NCBI GenBank assembly: GCA_963706025.1
Contig: CAVPLM010000003.1
Location: 768,001 to 832,000 of the forward strand
DNA length: 64,000 nucleotides
Direction of reading: 5' to 3'
DNA from: an uncultured Actinomycetes bacterium
GTDB lineage: Bacteria; Actinomycetota; Thermoleophilia; RBG-16-64-13
The notes under the pieces were generated by a model. The model searched no databases. It had not been told where the DNA came from and worked only from the letters and a program-made list of their open reading frames with translations. This document shows, one piece after another, positions 30,692 through 62,631 of this stretch (its first letter is position 1; every line of letters starts with the position of its first letter). The position numbers and the translations under genes were made by a program.

Positions 30692-31348
30692 TCACCGACA
30701 GCGAGTGAGCACGATCGTCACCCGTTCGTCGGGCAACGTATCACTCGTCACCTCGAGCATTGATCCCTCGTACCGCTCGACCTTGGCCTGCGTCGCCAGG
30801 AAGGGATCGACCGCGGCTATGGGGAAATCGACGCTGGTGGTCTTATAGTGCATCGGGACCACGATGCGTGGACTCAAAGATTCCACTACCTCGGCTGCCT
30901 GCAGTTGGTCGATGGTGAAGAAGCCTCCCACGGGCACCAGCAGGACGTCCACCCTACCCAGGGCCGCCACCGTAGCCGCGTCAAGAACGTGGCCTAGGTC
31001 GCCCAGGTGGACCAGACGTATGTCCCCATCGTCGAGGATCGCGATGGTGTTCTTCCCCCGATCGCGGCCACCGGCCTCGTCGTGAGCCACGTCGACCCCC
31101 GTGATCGTGAGCGATCCCACCGTCTCGGTGGTGGTGTGCAGGAGCACAAGAGGCTTCCCGGGGATGGTGTCGCAGGCCCCATGGTCATCGTGGTCATGAG
31201 AGGCCACCACCACGTCGGCCGGTTCACCGATCGGAGCATATCCGACCGCCCCACCAAAAGCCCCGTGCCGGTAGGGGTCCAGGATCACCCGGACGCCGTC
31301 CGCCGTCTCGACGAGAAAGGAAGAATGGGCGAAGTACGTGAGTCTCAT
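30692..31348 (-). CDS. MBL-fold metallo-hydrolase
   Basis: HSSFLV, DPY, SHDHDDHG, HLGDLG, PVGG, PMHY; GGAGG RBS. Confidence 0.9.
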   Translation of the reverse strand: MRLTYFAHSSFLVETADGVRVILDPYRHGAFGGAVGYAPIGEPADVVVASHDHDDHGACDTIPGKPLVLLHTTTETVGSLTITGVDVAHDEAGGRDRGKNTIAILDDGDIRLVHLGDLGHVLDAATVAALGRVDVLLVPVGGFFTIDQLQAAEVVESLSPRIVVPMHYKTTSVDFPIAAVDPFLATQAKVERYEGSMLEVTSDTLPDERVTIVLTRCR

Positions 31349-31504
31349 GGCGATCGCCTCCACTCGGTGCTGTGACATCCGCCGATAGGTTCCGTGGCAT
31401 CGGCTGATAGGTTAGCCGATGGGGGTACCGGGTAACAACTTGAACGAGACCTGGCCCGGCACGACATCCTTTCGCCTGATGGTACGGAGGCGACTTGTAT
31501 GCTA

Positions 31505-31524
31505 ATATACCCCCTTGGGTATAT
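31505..31524 (+). promoter_or_regulatory. CsoR/CstR-type operator upstream of trxA
   Basis: ATATACCC-CCTT-GGGTATAT palindrome (TACCC-N4-GGGTA) directly after a TATGCT -10 box. Confidence 0.7.
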
Positions 31525-31637
31525 GGACAGGACTCAAGAAGGATTTGGCGGGCCGGCGCGACGCGTCCTGGGGCCGCCTGGTCGGTTACCATAGCAGCAG
31601 GGCCGGTCGGCCGGCCCACGACAGCAAGGAGAATGAG

Positions 31638-31964
31638 ATGAGTGATGGCATCGTGCAGGAAGTGGACGCTAAGGGGTTCGACGAGGTGGTATCCACGTCC
31701 GCACTCCCTGTGGTGGTCGATTTCTGGGCACCCTGGTGCGGTCCCTGTCGTATGGTGGGCCCGGTCCTGGAGAAGCTGGCTTCCGACCACCCCGACAAGG
31801 TGACCGTCCTCAAAGTGAACGTCGATGTCAACCAAGAGCTGGCGGCGCGCTATGGGATCATGAGCATTCCCACGGTCATCATGTTCGAAGGGGGACAGCT
31901 CAAGACTCAGCTGATCGGGGCCCGCAACCAGAAAGACTACGAAAAGGAATTCGGGCTGGCATAA
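31638..31964 (+). CDS. trxA: Thioredoxin
   Basis: VVDFWAPWCGPC, YGIMSIPT; AAGGAG RBS. Confidence 0.96.
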   Translation: MSDGIVQEVDAKGFDEVVSTSALPVVVDFWAPWCGPCRMVGPVLEKLASDHPDKVTVLKVNVDVNQELAARYGIMSIPTVIMFEGGQLKTQLIGARNQKDYEKEFGLA

Positions 31965-32000
31965 GCCGCAGGCCTGAGCCGCGAAAGTGAGAGACGCTGG

Positions 32001-32357
32001 ATGAGTGATTCTGAAGCGCAACTGGTGTTGGTGGGCTCCAGGCGCATGGATGCCTTGCGGAGGGGCGGTGGCTGACGGCCCTCGCTATCTCTGGAAGAGG
32101 TAGTCGGTTATCTGAACCAGGATCTGGGAGCCCGGATGGGGAACGACGGGCCCCTGCTATACGTCGATGTCGATGACCCCGACCTCGAAGATTTCCCGGC
32201 TCTGGCCGGCGCGGTGGCCGAGGGTGACGGGGCTCCGCTGGTATTGGTGGGAGAAGAGATCAAGACTCCGGCCTCGATCAGTGTGTACTGGATCGAAGAC
32301 CAGCTTGCCGGTCTGGGTGTTGCACCCTTCGCCGACGAAGAGGGAGACGGTGGCTGA
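32001..32357 (+). CDS. Putative selenoprotein with thioredoxin-like (YuzD/DUF1462-like) fold; Sec at TGA 32073
   Basis: ATG 32001 reads MSDSEAQLVLVGSRRMDALRRGGG*RPSLSLEEVVGYLNQDL into the 32136 ORF in frame; hairpin CTATCTCT-GGA-AGAGGTAG at +10. Confidence 0.65.
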
Positions 32358-32587
32358 TGGCTTCGTATGATCTGAGGTGCCGCTCGTGCGGCAAGGACTT
32401 CGAGGTGTTCGTCCGCGGCTTCCTCAAGGACGATGAGAAGGTATGCCCGGACTGCGGCGGGCGCGAGGTGGAGCAGCGTTTCACGGGGTTCGGCGGCGTG
32501 TTGGGTCTGGGTCCGGCGGCTCCGTCGTGCGTCGACACCGGCAGGTGTGAGCCCCAGGGCTGTACACCCAGGTCGGGCTTCAGCTGA
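32357..32587 (+). CDS. FmdB-family zinc-ribbon protein, possibly extended to 32596 via a C-terminal Sec
   Basis: YDLRCRSCGKDFE..CPDCG; ends SGFS-TGA, followed by hairpin GGGGCC-CGTGT-GGCCCC at +11. Confidence 0.85.
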   Translation: MASYDLRCRSCGKDFEVFVRGFLKDDEKVCPDCGGREVEQRFTGFGGVLGLGPAAPSCVDTGRCEPQGCTPRSGFS

Positions 32588-32736
32588 GCGTCGTGACGGG
32601 GCCCGTGTGGCCCCAGATCCAGCCGGCCCGGGCCATGGTTCGAATGTGAGGCGGCCTAGGAGTGCGGGCCGGCGTGCGATAATCGGCACGCTGAGGCAGA
32701 GACCTGAGAGCTCTGTCGTCTACCCAAGGGAGTTGA

Positions 32737-33546
32737 ATGTACCCTGAGCTGTTCAATATCGGCGGGTTCACGATGAACTCGTTCGGGGTGATGATGGCGC
32801 TTTCGTTCATCTCCGCCGGTTTCGTCGCTCATTGGCAGTTCAAGCAGAGAGGCGTCAAGCCTGATTTCATCTACGGACTACTCATCGCGTGCGTCATCGG
32901 GGGTCTTCTCGGCGCCAAGATCCACTATCTGATCCTTCATCCCGCCGAATGGCCGGGAAACCTCCTGAGCGGCGGGGGTCTGGTGTGGTTCGGGGGACTC
33001 TTCGGCGCCATCGTGGCGGTGGTCATTGTCACCCTGCTTTCGAAAGAACGGCTGGCGGCCGTCATGGACTCCGGTGGCCCGGCAGTAGCCGTCGGCTACG
33101 CGGTGGGGCGGATCGGCTGCTTCCTCAGGGGTGACGACTACGGAGTGCCCACCGATCTACCTTGGGGCTTGTCTTTCCCGAAAGGTCTTCCCCCCACCAC
33201 GGTGCAAGTGCATCCTACCCAGCTGTACGAGTCTTTGGCCTCGCTGGTGATCTTCGCCCTCCTCGTGTGGGTCATCAGCCCCCGTTTCAAGCGAGAGGGC
33301 CCCTTGATCTTCGCCTATCTGCTGCTGGCCGGGATCGAGCGGTTCCTGGTGGAGTTCATCCGCACCAACGAGCCGGTGGCGCTGGGGCTCACGCAACAGC
33401 AGTGGATCAGCGTGGCGCTCTTCGCCATCGGCATCGCCGGGATGTGGTACTTCGAGACCTACGGACGGCTCCGTCCGGCGGTGGGCGACCAGGGGAACGT
33501 CGTGCCGGTCGTCGCCCCGGCCTCAAGCGGCCGTAAGGCCAGGTGA
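32737..33546 (+). CDS. lgt: Prolipoprotein diacylglyceryl transferase
   Basis: MYPELF, GGLVWFGG, GRIGCFL.GDDYG, HPTQLYE, RFLVEFIR; extended -10 TGCGATAAT upstream. Confidence 0.93.
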   Translation: MYPELFNIGGFTMNSFGVMMALSFISAGFVAHWQFKQRGVKPDFIYGLLIACVIGGLLGAKIHYLILHPAEWPGNLLSGGGLVWFGGLFGAIVAVVIVTLLSKERLAAVMDSGGPAVAVGYAVGRIGCFLRGDDYGVPTDLPWGLSFPKGLPPTTVQVHPTQLYESLASLVIFALLVWVISPRFKREGPLIFAYLLLAGIERFLVEFIRTNEPVALGLTQQQWISVALFAIGIAGMWYFETYGRLRPAVGDQGNVVPVVAPASSGRKAR

Positions 33547-33550
33547 GGCC

Positions 33551-34084
33551 ATGCGCCGCGCGCCGCGAAGAAACAACGCCCTGATGATCACCGCCGGAAT
33601 GGCGGCGTTCTTTGTGGCCTTGGTCGCGGTCTTGGCCGCCGGGTGCGGTTCCACCGGCACTTCCGCGACCGGCGCCACCGCCCAGGCCGAGGCCGGTTTC
33701 TCTGGCGTCACCCTCGACGGCACGGAGGTCTCTCTGAGCGAGTACCGGGGTAAGCCCCTGGTGTTGGCCTTCATGGCCAGCTGGTGAGGGGCCTGCGGGG
33801 CGGAGGCGCCCGAACTCGATAGGTTCTATCGAGACGAAGCAGAAAGAGCGGGGCTGTTGGTGATAGCCGTGAACGACGGCGAGGACGCCATGCGGGAGTT
33901 CGTTGACCAGGGCGGGTACACGTTCCCGGTGATGCTCGATCCGGACAACCTGGCCGCGGACTACGGGGTACGCGCCATCCCCACCATCGTGGTGCTCGAC
34001 TCCGAAGGCGAGGTCGCCAAGACTGTGGTCGGCGGCGTCACAGCCGAGGAACTGTCGAGCCTGGTGGATGACCTTACCCGCTGA
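33551..34084 (+). CDS. TlpA/ResA-family thiol-disulfide oxidoreductase lipoprotein, selenoprotein (UxxC)
   Basis: Lipobox LAAGC; SLSEYRGKPLVLAFMASW-TGA-GAC-GAEAPEL continues in frame to YGVRAIPT; hairpin GGGCG-GAGG-CGCCC at +11. Confidence 0.88.
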
Positions 34085-34790
34085 CCTCGGTATCACCGCC
34101 TTCCTCGTGGCGTTAGCGGGCGGGGCTGCCAGCTTCCTCAGCCCTTGTGTCCTCCCCCTCCTTCCGGCCTATCTCTCGTTCGTCTCCGGCCTGAGCGTCG
34201 AGGAGTTGCGGGAGGGGGATCGACGAGTGTTCTTGAGCACGCTCGCCTTCGTGCTCGGGTTCTCCGCCGTGTTCACCTTACTGGGGGCGGGTTTCTCCTT
34301 CGCCGGCGTGCTGGTCGCCAACCAACGCTTGCTCCAGATCGTCTCGGGAGCCCTGTTGGTCGTACTCGGGGCTATCATCGCCGGTCTGACAGCGCCCGGC
34401 TTCATGCAGAAGGACGTGCGGCCGCTCCTCGGCAAGGTGCCTCGGGGCCCGACGGGAGCCTTCATCATGGGCGTGGCTTTTGCCTTTGGCTGGACGCCCT
34501 GCGTCGGTCCGGTGCTGGCCTCGATACTGACCATGGCCGCCTCGGGAGGCGACCCGGCGGCTGGAGCAATGCTTCTGTTCGTGTATTCCTTGGGATTGGG
34601 GATACCTTTCTTGTTGGCGGGGTTCTTCGTGGGCCGAGCCTTGCGGGCGTTCTCGCGAGTGCGGAAGCATCTGCGGGTCATCCAGATAATCTGCGGAGTA
34701 ATCCTGGTGCTCTACGGGGCCCTCCTGATCGGAGGGCAGTTCGGCTGGCTGTCGGCGCGGTTGTCCGGCTTGGGTCTTCCCCTTTTCTGA
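34068..34790 (+). CDS. ccdA: Cytochrome c biogenesis/disulfide transporter CcdA
   Basis: SFLSPCVLPLLPAY, FGWTPCVGPVL, YSLGLGIPF. Confidence 0.93.
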   Translation: MTLPADLGITAFLVALAGGAASFLSPCVLPLLPAYLSFVSGLSVEELREGDRRVFLSTLAFVLGFSAVFTLLGAGFSFAGVLVANQRLLQIVSGALLVVLGAIIAGLTAPGFMQKDVRPLLGKVPRGPTGAFIMGVAFAFGWTPCVGPVLASILTMAASGGDPAAGAMLLFVYSLGLGIPFLLAGFFVGRALRAFSRVRKHLRVIQIICGVILVLYGALLIGGQFGWLSARLSGLGLPLF

Positions 34791-35090
34791 CCCATCTCTG
34801 ACCGGGGGGACGATGCCCACCGGCTGCGCCGCGGGCTCCTTCAGGCGGGTCTGACTTGGCGGAAGCTAGGAACTGACTTCCGTTCTTTGGCGTCGTAGGG
34901 GCGACAGGGTAGGGTCACAGCCGACCTGGCCGTGTCACCCTCCTGTCAGTCCGCCGGGGGGGCGTGAGGGCGCTGGTCGCACCTTGGTGCTCCCAGCGCC
35001 CTCGGTGTATACTCCGTTTTTCGCGTTGCCAGCAAGGGGCCGTGGCTTGCAGAAGTCCTGTCCGGCGGCGCGGGTACAATCCCATACTGC

Positions 35091-35139
35091 ACCCCTGCTC
35101 CGGCAGTGAGGCCGGGGCCGCTTGAGACCGTAGGAGGTG
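35091..35139 (+). promoter_or_regulatory. S6:S18 ribosomal protein leader (autoregulatory RNA)
   Basis: CCCCTGCTCCGGC...GCCGGGGCCGCTTGAGACCGTAGGAGGTG: hairpin followed by CCG, with a 5' pyrimidine tract able to pair with the SD; TACAAT -10 at 35075. Confidence 0.7.
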
Positions 35140-35146
35140 ATCTAAG

Positions 35147-35491
35147 CTGAACAGCTATGAGCTGGTTCTTATCCTGCGCGCCGACGTGGAGGATCAAGAA
35201 CGAACCGCGGTGCTCGATCGCACCAAAGAGATCATCACGGGCGACCAAGGCGTCGTCGTGAAGATCGACGAGTGGGGCAAGCGACGTCTTGCCTATGAGA
35301 TCAAGGATGTCTTCGATGGCGTCTACTACATCCTCTATTTCGAGGCGACGCCCAAGACTCTTGACGAGGTGACCCGGGTGCTCGGCATCACCGACAGCGT
35401 GCTGCGATTCATGCCGGTCCGCCACGAGAAGCCTTTCAGCCTCCAGCAGCCCGCGGCTGCGGCTGCTGCATCGGCTGCGGAAGAAGCCTAG
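35147..35491 (+). CDS. rpsF: 30S ribosomal protein S6, CTG start
   Basis: AGGAGGT RBS, then CTG-AAC-AGC-TAT-GAG (MNSYELVLIL); WGKRRLAYEI; in-frame TGA at 35138 excludes earlier starts. Confidence 0.93.
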   Translation: MNSYELVLILRADVEDQERTAVLDRTKEIITGDQGVVVKIDEWGKRRLAYEIKDVFDGVYYILYFEATPKTLDEVTRVLGITDSVLRFMPVRHEKPFSLQQPAAAAAASAAEEA

Positions 35492-61342: not shown

Positions 61343-62434
61343 CTAGTCCGTCTCCGGCTCCAGCCGGCCCGTGGGGGGCAGGTACGGGCGCGGGGTCTGA
61401 CTCTGACGCCAAGTCGGGTCGGGGCGCGGCACCGGATCGGGGCGCGGTACCGGATGACGTCGGGTGTCCCGTTCGGCGCGGCGCTGCGCACGTGCCTCCC
61501 AAACCAATTGCTGACCGCCGAGGGGCTGGGCCTGTTCCGCCGCGCGAGCGGCGCGCACCTTCTTCCGGCTACGCCTGAGCAGATTGCGGTAGTAGTTGAA
61601 GTGCCAGCTCACATGGAAGATGGAGATGAGCGTCATCGCTACCCCTGCCTCCACATGCCAGAACAGGAGGTCGAAGGGGATGGTGAAGGGCAATTCGTAA
61701 TCGAGCTGGATCGTAAGGATCAACCCGAAGATGCCCGTGATCAAGAAAGTGGCCAGAAGAAGCACGTTCCAGATCTTGCGGTGGGTGGTGACCTTGATCC
61801 TCTTGGTCTTGTGAAGGACGAAGCTGGCCGCGTAGATCAGGAAGAATCCGATGGCGATGGGGCTCACGTTGTAGCCGGTGAAGAGCGAGACCCCACCGGA
61901 GTCTTCGGCGCCGGTGGCGGAGACCGTGGCGACCGAGTCGCCTGACGCGCCCGTAGCTGTCGCGGAGCTGTCGCTCGGACCGCCGGATGACGGAGTGGTG
62001 GTCGAGGTGGTCGCGGAGCCGCTGGCGGCAGCCAGGGCGACGGCTCCGGCTGCGGTCTCGACCGAGACGAGCGAGCCGATGCTGAGGCAGGCGCCGCAGC
62101 CGGCGCAAGGGCCCAGAGGACAGTCACCGGTCGGCGGTTCTCCAGAGGTGGTGGTTGTCACCGCCAGGGTCGTGGTAGTCGTTTCGGACTTGGGTGCCGT
62201 GGTGGTGGTCGTGGTCGACTCGACCGGCTCGGACTGGGAGAGATCGCAGATGTCGTCGCCGTCGGTGTCGACGTACCGGCTGCATGCTCCCGGGTAGGGA
62301 TCGTTTACCAGCCCTTTGGGGCAGTTATCCCAGGCTAGAGCTTGGGAGGGAAAGGCCAATCCGAACGATATGCCAAAAGTCGCCAGGGAGGCGACCAGAG
62401 CGAATGTTGCCACTCTCTTCTTGACAGTTGCCAT
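61343..62434 (-). CDS. Exported Cys-rich membrane protein with DUF4405-like TM domain
   Basis: Signal peptide; CPKGLVNDPYPGACSRYVDTDGDDICD; CPLGPCAGCGAC; TM region HRKIWN...WHVEAG...FHVSWH. Confidence 0.75.
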   Translation of the reverse strand: MATVKKRVATFALVASLATFGISFGLAFPSQALAWDNCPKGLVNDPYPGACSRYVDTDGDDICDLSQSEPVESTTTTTTAPKSETTTTTLAVTTTTSGEPPTGDCPLGPCAGCGACLSIGSLVSVETAAGAVALAAASGSATTSTTTPSSGGPSDSSATATGASGDSVATVSATGAEDSGGVSLFTGYNVSPIAIGFFLIYAASFVLHKTKRIKVTTHRKIWNVLLLATFLITGIFGLILTIQLDYELPFTIPFDLLFWHVEAGVAMTLISIFHVSWHFNYYRNLLRRSRKKVRAARAAEQAQPLGGQQLVWEARAQRRAERDTRRHPVPRPDPVPRPDPTWRQSQTPRPYLPPTGRLEPETD

Positions 62435-62529
62435 CGCACCATACCTTTGTTGGGGGCTGACCGCCGGCCGGCTCGGTGCTGCGGGGTCGTGCGTCCGACG
62501 ATGCACCCTGGTTCGACCTGACTGCAGTG

Positions 62530-62543
62530 TACCCACGGGGGTA
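62530..62543 (-). promoter_or_regulatory. Second CsoR/CstR-type operator
   Basis: TACCC-ACGG-GGGTA overlapping a minus-strand TACACT -10 upstream of the Cys-rich membrane gene. Confidence 0.6.
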
Positions 62544-62631
62544 TAAAGCATTCATAAATCCTGGATTACAGTTTCGTAGTCCGGCTTGCCGGCCTGTCGG
62601 ACACGGCGCCCGGGAAGCCGTGCCCCGCGCG

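Follow-up and report, generated by a model that had tools for sequence, protein, structure and literature searches.

A stretch of 64,000 nucleotides (nt) from the genome of an uncultured actinobacterium (contig CAVPLM010000003.1, positions 768,001 to 832,000; hereafter the window) harbours, between positions 31498 and 34790, six plus-strand genes in the order trxA, yuzD-like, fmdB, lgt, tlpA and ccdA, three of which contain an in-frame TGA (32073-32075 in the yuzD-like gene, 32585-32587 in fmdB and 33785-33787 in tlpA). Comparison with related genomes makes it very probable that all three UGAs encode selenocysteine (Sec, U). The explanation that accounts best for the locus as a whole, and which we regard as probable, is that of one operon with three Sec genes that specifies a repressor-controlled thiol/selenol relay. 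The three TGAs are present where an initial annotation, made from the letters of the window, had reported them, and its overall interpretation is supported by the analysis presented here.

The genome is a metagenome bin of 3.66 Mb with a completeness of 92%, a contamination of 7.3% and a G+C content of 64%; named relatives of the host actinobacterium carry the label Thermoleophilia. As the initial annotation had remarked, a list of open reading frames under translation table 11 splits or shortens the yuzD-like gene, fmdB and tlpA, and continuous frames are obtained when TGA is translated as U. The features of the locus are as follows.

31505..31524, strand not assigned: predicted CsoR/CstR-type operator palindrome ATATACCCCCTTGGGTATAT (ATATACCC-CCTT-GGGTATAT), about 115 nt ahead of the start codon of trxA
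31638..31964, plus strand: trxA, thioredoxin with WCGPC motif and without Sec (Pfam Thioredoxin 100.7 bits; TIGR01068 118 bits)
32001..32357, plus strand: yuzD/arsD-like gene with predicted Sec, 118 residues, its own TGA stop overlapping the fmdB ATG (TGATG)
32073..32075, plus strand: UGA of the yuzD-like gene, predicted to be read as Sec (U25)
32085..32103, plus strand: predicted SECIS hairpin of the yuzD-like gene, CTATCTCT-GGA-AGAGGTAG, stem of 8 bp, loop GGA
32357..32596, plus strand: fmdB with predicted Sec, FmdB-family zinc ribbon of 79 residues ending in GFS-U-A-S-stop
32585..32587, plus strand: UGA of fmdB, predicted to be read as Sec (U77); the true stop comes after two more codons
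32594..32596, plus strand: true fmdB stop, a second TGA two codons past the first
32598..32614, plus strand: predicted SECIS hairpin of fmdB, GGGGCC-CGTGT-GGCCCC, stem of 6 bp, loop CGUGU, beyond the true stop
32737..33546, plus strand: lgt, prolipoprotein diacylglyceryl transferase (Pfam LGT 182.6 bits)
33551..34084, plus strand: tlpA with predicted Sec, tlpA/resA-like lipoprotein thiol:disulfide oxidoreductase with W-U-G-A-C active site
33785..33787, plus strand: UGA of tlpA, predicted to be read as Sec (U79; ...MASW-U-GAC...)
33798..33811, plus strand: hairpin 1 of tlpA, GGGCG-GAGG-CGCCC, likely SECIS
33815..33833, plus strand: hairpin 2 of tlpA, CTCGATAG-GTT-CTATCGAG (as RNA CUCGAUAG-GUU-CUAUCGAG), 27 nt past the UGA
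34068..34790, plus strand: ccdA, DsbD-type membrane thiol electron transporter (Pfam DsbD_TM 75.8 bits)

Probable selenocysteine insertion at the three UGA codons

The Sec machinery, whose presence the initial annotation had named as a check, is found in the genome (G000 in our coordinates) with all of its parts. The tRNA-Sec (79.1 bits, anticodon TCA; ARAGORN likewise calls tRNA-SeC) shares contig C3 with the window; selA (449.7 bits) and selB (303.9 bits) are situated side by side on the same contig; and selD (388 bits) is located elsewhere in the genome (G000:C5:742679-743602). The latter is a selenoprotein gene itself, with one in-frame TGA (...SGS-G-U-ACK...) that is followed, from 13 nt past the UGA onwards, by a 7-bp hairpin with the loop GGAC, in a style like that of the three operon hairpins.

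A match to the yuzD-like gene was obtained in 33 of 61 related genomes (the own genome included), namely in 29 of the window's family (the own genome and 28 of 36 relatives) and in all four genomes of one sister family. SelA is present in 30 of these 33 genomes, the three exceptions being 84, 76 and 66% complete. The yuzD-like gene contains a TGA in 32 of the 33, in the same column in 19 of 20 aligned loci; the sequence U-x-x-stop recurs in 29/29 fmdB loci (the window and 28 family-level relatives); and exactly one TGA, followed by x-x-Cys, occurs in 17/17 syntenic orthologues of tlpA. The TGAs are thus conserved together with the synteny, as the initial annotation had suggested should be checked. 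Cysteine likewise appears at the aligned columns, being found in 14 of 19 full-length YuzD-like homologues and in five FmdB homologues (see below), while U79 of TlpA aligns with the first Cys of the WCGPC motif of TrxA.

Each TGA is followed by a hairpin, and these were found as they had been placed from the window, with stems that begin at the 10th (yuzD-like) or the 11th (fmdB, tlpA) base past the TGA and with a G at position 1 or 2 of the loop; all three loops start about 15-17 nt past their UGA, a position and shape that fit bacterial selenocysteine insertion sequence (SECIS) elements and that covariation among the relatives backs. In the yuzD-like gene 99.6% of the 256 cells of the helix (32 sequences) are paired, three of the eight pairs show changes on both sides, and the covariation score was reached by none of 500 shuffles; one of the compensated pairs consists of a Val/Thr codon swap that is offset by a synonymous change in a Leu codon. 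The same-genus relative G001, which has no TGA at this site, is absent from the test. In fmdB 97.4% of 156 cells are paired and five of the six pairs are compensatory, a value as high as which was not seen in 500 shuffles; four of the 28 rows of this alignment are misaligned, two of them appearing as gaps. As only two residues come after Sec in FmdB, the fmdB hairpin lies past the true stop, and protein coding cannot therefore explain its conservation. The first helix of tlpA is paired to 82%, with three compensatory pairs out of six. A second helix, further downstream, has seven of its eight pairs unvaried in 18/18 sequences, synonymous sites included, though the proteins differ, and it could belong to an extended SECIS element or to some other RNA signal. 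An Rfam scan of positions 31300-35200 returned two chance matches and no SECIS family.

At this locus, UGAs flanked by conserved coding sequence, a paired stem-loop, Sec machinery and Cys-containing homologues are found together, as in genes that depend on SelB and SECIS elements. The three internal UGAs would be read as Sec by the ordinary bacterial SelB/SECIS route, and the recoding mechanism itself is ordinary.

The predicted selenoproteins and the proposed membrane arm

The first predicted selenoprotein gene codes for a small protein with the motif GSR..D..(C)..GGG-U-RP.LSLEE, which reads ...RRGGG-U-RPSLSLEE... in the window. An alignment of 32 rows, from which locus L059 is omitted because its aligned stretch crosses a TAG at the distal end, shows invariant residues on either side of the Sec column: G12, S13 and D17 ahead of it and S30-L31-E32-E33 behind it. 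For the window protein, neither Pfam (with E values up to 10 admitted) nor NCBIfam gave a match, and two of the 32 family members match PF07315 weakly (best E 0.059). In public protein sets all 15 hits are tails of 73-85 residues designated 'hypothetical protein'. A profile search among 1.84 billion representative sequences gave 87 hits, from which 28 full-length proteins were retrieved and 19 aligned; at the Sec column of these, 14 have Cys, four Trp and one Ser. Ten Cys forms were compared with Pfam: one reaches DUF1462 with 32.9 bits (cut-off 25) and ArsD with 24.7 bits (cut-off 27), and five others match DUF1462 weakly. The joint profile matches SA0798 of S. aureus (PDB 1XG8; E 3.8e-7), the Sec column falling on the second Cys of its CASC motif.

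The structural comparisons point in the same direction. The AlphaFold model of the YuzD-like protein (mean predicted local distance difference test, pLDDT, 81) has a thioredoxin fold, and a search of 48,161 chains placed ArsD 3KGK first (Z 7.1), a mycoredoxin second (6.6), ArsD 3KTB third (6.5) and 1XG8 eighth (5.9); all matches have the thioredoxin fold at Z 5-7 and do not stand clear of ordinary thioredoxins. Foldseek against PDB found nothing at E <= 0.001, only weak rows of thioredoxins, glutaredoxins and CLIC proteins, and a PDB sequence search with the profile gave spurious KRas matches only. From profile and model, the protein would appear to be a Sec-containing distant relative of the YuzD/DUF1462 and ArsD proteins that is a member of neither Pfam family. 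The plain label 'Trx-like' of the initial annotation is refined by this more specific, distant relationship. The protein resembles YuzD/DUF1462 (PF07315; SA0798, 1XG8) and ArsD (PF06953; 3KGK, 3KTB) in its modelled small thioredoxin fold and, less closely, in the Cys motif before helix 1; unlike the CxxC of YuzD and the CC-x4-C of ArsD, the motif of the window family is (C)-x4-U, and there is no ars context. The upstream Cys of this motif is replaced by Leu in the window's genus and the window protein has no Cys at all, so that Sec would be its sole redox residue. ArsD binds As(III) at a site of three cysteines; this three-thiol site is absent from the YuzD-like protein.

The second predicted selenoprotein belongs to the FmdB family (Pfam Zn_ribbon_8, PF09723, 48.6 bits with a cut-off of 34.4; TIGR02605, 45.3 bits with a cut-off of 31.3). 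The ribbon cysteines C8/C11 and C30/C33 are present, Sec is residue 77 of 79, and the tail reads ...PRSGFS-U-AS-stop; a Cys is seen by eye 6-8 residues ahead of Sec. The two residues after U are A-S, A-G, A-H, G-H, A-Q, A-R, G-L or S-H, followed by TGA, TAG or TAA, and where Ala comes directly after U, its codon shows synonymous variation among GCG/GCC/GCA/GCT. Among the 120 database relatives listed, most have 74-77 residues and cover 96% of the query, i.e. they are cut at the TGA, three residues early. Five longer homologues end in C-A-G, C-A-R or C-A-H, which corresponds to U-A-x with Cys for Sec, and one has W at this position.

FmdB-family selenoproteins have previously been predicted from Global Ocean Sampling (GOS) reads, with a CxxU motif according to the text of PMC2398784, and Table 1 of a 2026 review (PMC13188914) lists them, from that study, only as 'UxxU'. 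The present protein belongs to the same zinc-ribbon family (TIGR02605/PF09723), but it retains all four ribbon Cys and carries Sec third from the C-terminus, whereas Sec lies in the CxxU/UxxU motif according to those texts. In the position of Sec it rather resembles the two UXX-star families (NF041114, NF041211), which Table 1 of PMC13188914 describes as glutaredoxin-like: common to both are Sec, two further residues and a stop, with the SECIS element outside the reading frame. A comparison with NCBIfam, with matches of E up to 0.01 considered, brought up neither UXX-star model, and NF041211 had no match at the locus at E up to 1.

TlpA, the third predicted selenoprotein, has the Redoxin/AhpC-TSA fold (Pfam Redoxin 78.3 bits, AhpC-TSA 76.1 bits). 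In 18/18 sequences a hydrophobic N-terminus is followed, as judged by eye, by a lipobox-like [GAS]-C-G, which fits a lipoprotein and agrees with the lipobox noted in the initial annotation. UxxC thiol:disulfide interchange, Redoxin and TlpA-type selenoproteins are catalogued in Table 1 of PMC13188914, and the present TlpA resembles them in its fold and its UxxC motif; it differs in taking the form of a lipoprotein whose gene shares an operon with ccdA and lgt, and it is not a member of the WAxxUGC family (NF041054, 45 bits with a cut-off of 300). Contigs from two other sequencing runs have a 12-base in-frame insertion at window position 33674, in the linker between lipobox and folded domain, which looks like strain variation.

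The operon lgt is a second copy of this gene in the genome, the other being located at G000:C3:104687-105415, and no gene apart from the operon ccdA matches DsbD_TM above cut-off. Among the NCBIfam models TlpA scores best with ResA, at 82.8 bits, well under the cut-off of 170. Searches of the genome, which is 92% complete, found no ResB, CcmH or CcsA/CcmF family member, and CcdA and TlpA are therefore likely to serve a purpose other than cytochrome c maturation. Downstream of fmdB, the relative L061 has a gene with a CcmH-like motif, seen by eye and without a family search.

Recoding has several observations to contend with. Folded as single sequences, the hairpins of the yuzD-like gene, fmdB and tlpA attain z = -1.5, -0.6 and -2.9, respectively (200 shuffles each), which is unremarkable at 64% G+C, so that the case for them rests on the comparison with relatives; G001, a close relative of the same genus (locus L044), has TGG at the yuzD-like Sec column; and W stands there in four of the 19 YuzD-like homologues, as it does in one FmdB homologue, all known from protein records only, where it may reflect TGG or readthrough by the gene caller. 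(The proteins with W at the Sec column of either family are P0023, P0043, P0068, P0092 and P0196; fmdB and tlpA of G001 retain their TGAs.) The TGG in one relative, together with the contamination of the metagenome bin, could be taken as a sign that the TGAs stem from sequencing errors or from nonsense mutations in genes that are decaying, or that the genetic code is a different one. To this we attach next to no probability. Identical TGA columns recur in dozens of independent assemblies, Sec machinery is encoded on the same contig, and TGA is the terminal stop of five of the six operon genes, which excludes an altered code. DNA contigs from the runs of three studies, one run possibly being the source of the assembly, cover the whole stretch, and none of their 40 listed differences (a further 72 fall outside that listing) touches the TGAs, i.e. 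none produces the TGC, TGT or TGG that the initial annotation had envisaged in read data; the listed differences that adjoin Sec codons (32593 and 33781) are synonymous.

A narrower objection concerns fmdB, where the first TGA might be a plain stop and the hairpin a terminator or attenuator, leaving two selenoprotein genes only. Readthrough gains just three residues, the z of the single-sequence hairpin is low, and in relatives without a downstream lgt (L038, L059, L060) a T-rich run follows the hairpin, which may there double as a terminator. However, a stop is found two codons on in all 29 loci with the Ala codon varying synonymously, the Cys homologues terminate in C-A-x-stop, the spacing and the G-containing loop fit the other SECIS elements of the genome, and no T run stands behind the hairpin of the window, all of which makes a plain stop at this site very unlikely.

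Operator, regulator and the proposed relay

The conserved core of the locus is formed by trxA and the two Sec genes yuzD-like and fmdB, which the second lgt, the Sec gene tlpA and ccdA join in most relatives. Directly 5' of the yuzD-like gene, trxA is found in 27/27 testable loci (one further contig ends too early), its CGPC motif being present in 27/27 relatives, and fmdB lies directly 3' of it in 28/28 related loci. Downstream, the same 28 loci show lgt in 19 cases and tlpA in 17; in 12 of them tlpA is immediately followed by ccdA. Some contigs end early. Further joints are tight as well: 4 nt separate lgt from tlpA, and the start of ccdA overlaps the end of tlpA. Contigs of one RNA library span the yuzD-like/fmdB, lgt/tlpA and tlpA/ccdA junctions and cover only 16 of 30 bins; as they are possibly derived from DNA, they do not demonstrate expression or transcript ends and give a weak hint of co-transcription.

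A box of the form TACCC-N(2-9)-GGGTA, with at most one mismatch, occurs 67-156 nt upstream of trxA in 27/27 relatives, which agrees with the CsoR-type operator that had been proposed for the window. The genome holds a single CsoR-family gene (91 bits; G000:C5:530797-531096), with a box about 130 nt upstream, and a similar box precedes the orthologous regulator in 25 of 30 loci. Aligned to the chains of InrS, CsoR and CstR, the regulator keeps two Cys and has Arg at the canonical His position; its best NCBIfam match is RicR with 53 bits, under the cut-off. In the W-X-Y-Z scheme of PMC8643695, x-C-x-C is the signature of persulfide sensors, including a large uncharacterised actinomycete cluster, and the S. 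mitis cst operator printed there closely resembles the operon box.

The box is found elsewhere in the genome. One copy lies 145 nt upstream of a gene for a type III sulfide:quinone reductase (SQR; G000:C3:348648-349874; NF049943, 610 bits), which NCBIfam calls a 'selenoprotein subtype' and which contains no internal TGA. A C-terminal Sec in this SQR gene was considered and rejected, since a Shine-Dalgarno sequence and the ATG of the next gene come behind the TGA. Another copy of the box, at C5:802904, is upstream of a gene for a ThiF/MoeB-family adenylyltransferase and near a gene that, judged from its sequence and without a family search, resembles cysteine synthase (cysK). The ThiF/MoeB and cysK-like genes (G000:C5:801461-802687 and 803777-804673) are possible further members of a sulfur-related regulon. 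No copA or copZ was seen beside a box in the window genome.

Taken together, these comparisons make it probable that the operon stands under a CsoR-family repressor. Arg at the His position and SQR in the apparent regulon render induction by reactive sulfur likelier than induction by copper, and for the inducing signal we lean slightly towards the former. Of the metal or reactive-sulfur switch in the initial annotation it is hence the second half that gains, with the regulator closer in appearance to persulfide sensors than to copper sensors. The locus resembles the cst operon and CstR in its putative palindromic operator (ATATACCC...GGGTATAT), in the window genome's regulator, which has two Cys but lacks the canonical His, and in SQR as part of the apparent regulon; it differs in that its genes specify a putative thioredoxin/selenoprotein relay and not sulfurtransferases or a persulfide dioxygenase.

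We propose that a single CsoR-family repressor, with x-C-x-C as in the CstR persulfide sensors, would keep the operon off, that it seemingly also controls the type III SQR, and that reactive-sulfur stress or, with lower likelihood, copper stress would lift the repression. Thioredoxin could then pass electrons to the two cytoplasmic selenoproteins, YuzD-like and FmdB, and, via CcdA, to the third one, the lipid-anchored TlpA on the far side of the membrane, to which the extra Lgt copy may attach its anchor. In this way the relay would reduce disulfides or persulfides both inside and outside the membrane. A transmembrane relay of reductant from TrxA through CcdA to ResA, StoA or TlpA is known from Bacillus, Bradyrhizobium and mycobacteria. 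Here, likewise, a thioredoxin, a DsbD_TM transporter and an extracytoplasmic oxidoreductase of the Redoxin fold are encoded together; in contrast to the classic relay, the first active-site Cys of TlpA is replaced by Sec, and two cytoplasmic selenoproteins and an extra lgt are added.

A more specific form of this proposal, which we hold to be less likely than not, is that the operon is a persulfide-induced, selenium-dependent depersulfidase/disulfide-reductase relay in which FmdB may be a redox shuttle, its flexible C-terminal Cys...Sec arm acting on the translationally coupled YuzD-like selenoprotein much as the GCUG tail of animal thioredoxin reductase does. If so, FmdB proteins would not be the 'putative regulators' as which they have long been annotated, and a first biochemical role would be obtained for FmdB/COG2331 and YuzD/DUF1462, two widespread families of unknown function.

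The joint operon and its persulfide-type control also meet with contrary observations. The gap between fmdB and lgt amounts to 140 nt, tlpA and ccdA follow the core in only 17 and 12 of the 28 loci, and lgt-tlpA-ccdA may have a promoter of their own, given that gap; a simple scan of the operon region for sigma-70 promoters found no site. The box upstream of SQR occurs in only eight of 14 loci (here and in seven of 13 related ones), and the core TACCC-N4-GGGTA was seen six times in the genome where base composition leads one to expect about four by chance. His stands, as judged by eye, at the Y position in five of 30 orthologue rows of the regulator, and five relatives have a canonical C-H-C csoR 1.4-3.2 kb upstream of trxA. 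These last two points suit an alternative in which the same three selenoproteins are copper-responsive under a true Cu(I)-sensing CsoR, with the YuzD-like protein and the FmdB tail binding metal or metalloid through Sec and TlpA/CcdA keeping the cysteines of envelope copper proteins reduced. To its credit are further the CsoR type of the box, the sub-threshold RicR match of the regulator, a copZ beside the extra csoR in the one relative examined, ArsD as the top structural match, and the metal binding suggested for UXX-star Sec tails in PMC13188914. We consider it rather improbable: the only CsoR-family protein of the window genome has Arg at the His position, SQR belongs to the putative regulon while copA and copZ were not seen next to a box, and the YuzD-like protein, with no Cys besides Sec, lacks a site of the ArsD kind. 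The membrane genes might, finally, be the thioreduction arm of housekeeping cytochrome c maturation (ResA/CcdA type) that merely stands beside unrelated small genes, as the ResA match of TlpA and the CcmH-like motif in L061 could indicate; the failure to find ResB, CcmH and CcsA/CcmF and the stress-type operator ahead of the operon in all relatives leave this with very little likelihood.

Published selenoprotein operons and further observations

Multi-selenoprotein operons have been published before, namely the three-selenoprotein operon (Tso) and the SAO system (both treated in PMC13188914). With these the present locus has in common several Sec genes in one operon, which implies a shared pathway, as well as DsbD-type and thioredoxin-fold parts; it differs in the families (YuzD/ArsD-like, FmdB, TlpA), in the lineage and in its conserved CsoR/CstR-type operator. 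No Tso or Sao model of NCBIfam reaches its cut-off on the operon proteins, the TsoB model giving 64 bits with CcdA and 20 bits with TlpA (cut-off 805). Table 1 of the review lists 119 selenoprotein families and subfamilies, and neither YuzD/ArsD-like (DUF1462) selenoproteins nor FmdB selenoproteins with C-terminal U-x-x-stop are among these 119 (PMC13188914). A full-text literature search, with subscription papers and supplements outside its reach, returned no paper that links selenocysteine to DUF1462, YuzD or ArsD, and in the same search the term 'UXX-star' occurred only in PMC13188914. The novelty lies in three predicted selenoprotein genes, two of them from families uncatalogued in print, in one conserved and apparently regulated relay; the UxxC TlpA type is already known.

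Public gene calls shorten all three proteins, and their redox-active residue is as a consequence invisible in databases. The fixed neighbourhood, the CstR-like operator and the box held in common with SQR offer a testable hypothesis for two families of unknown function, and bear on why Thermoleophilia-type bacteria from sediment and freshwater habitats use selenium in their defence against reactive sulfur.

Some minor observations concern the box and its regulators. The five relatives with an extra C-H-C csoR are L061 (csoR region 349-1130), G006, G008, G010 and G014; in L061, the only one of the five examined, this csoR is divergent from a copZ-like gene, and the extra csoR occurs in lineages where lgt-tlpA-ccdA are not 3' of fmdB. 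A further copy of the box adjoins a fasciclin gene. Within the window, another CsoR/CstR-type box, GTACCCACGGGGGTAT at 62530-62543, lies just upstream of a minus-strand gene (61343-62551) whose product, of 361-402 residues and without Pfam or NCBIfam match, is rich in Cys and Thr and probably secreted. A scan of the operon for terminators gave four sites, all of them inside genes or no better than shuffles.

Beyond the 61 genomes, a back-translated pattern with Cys in place of Sec matched 15 stretches in DNA, none of which was confirmed as a homologue. Four stand-alone yuzD-like genes (L069 of the sister family f6, and one each from Gaiellales, Eubacteriales and Bacillota) have neighbours without a clear functional hint. 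In named public contigs, the loci that fit the DNA pattern are mostly noise; 26 of the first 80 are true yuzD-like homologues, and these 26 carry the labels Thermoleophilia, Gaiellales, Actinomycetota and Actinomycetes, with one Eubacteriales and one Bacillota in addition.

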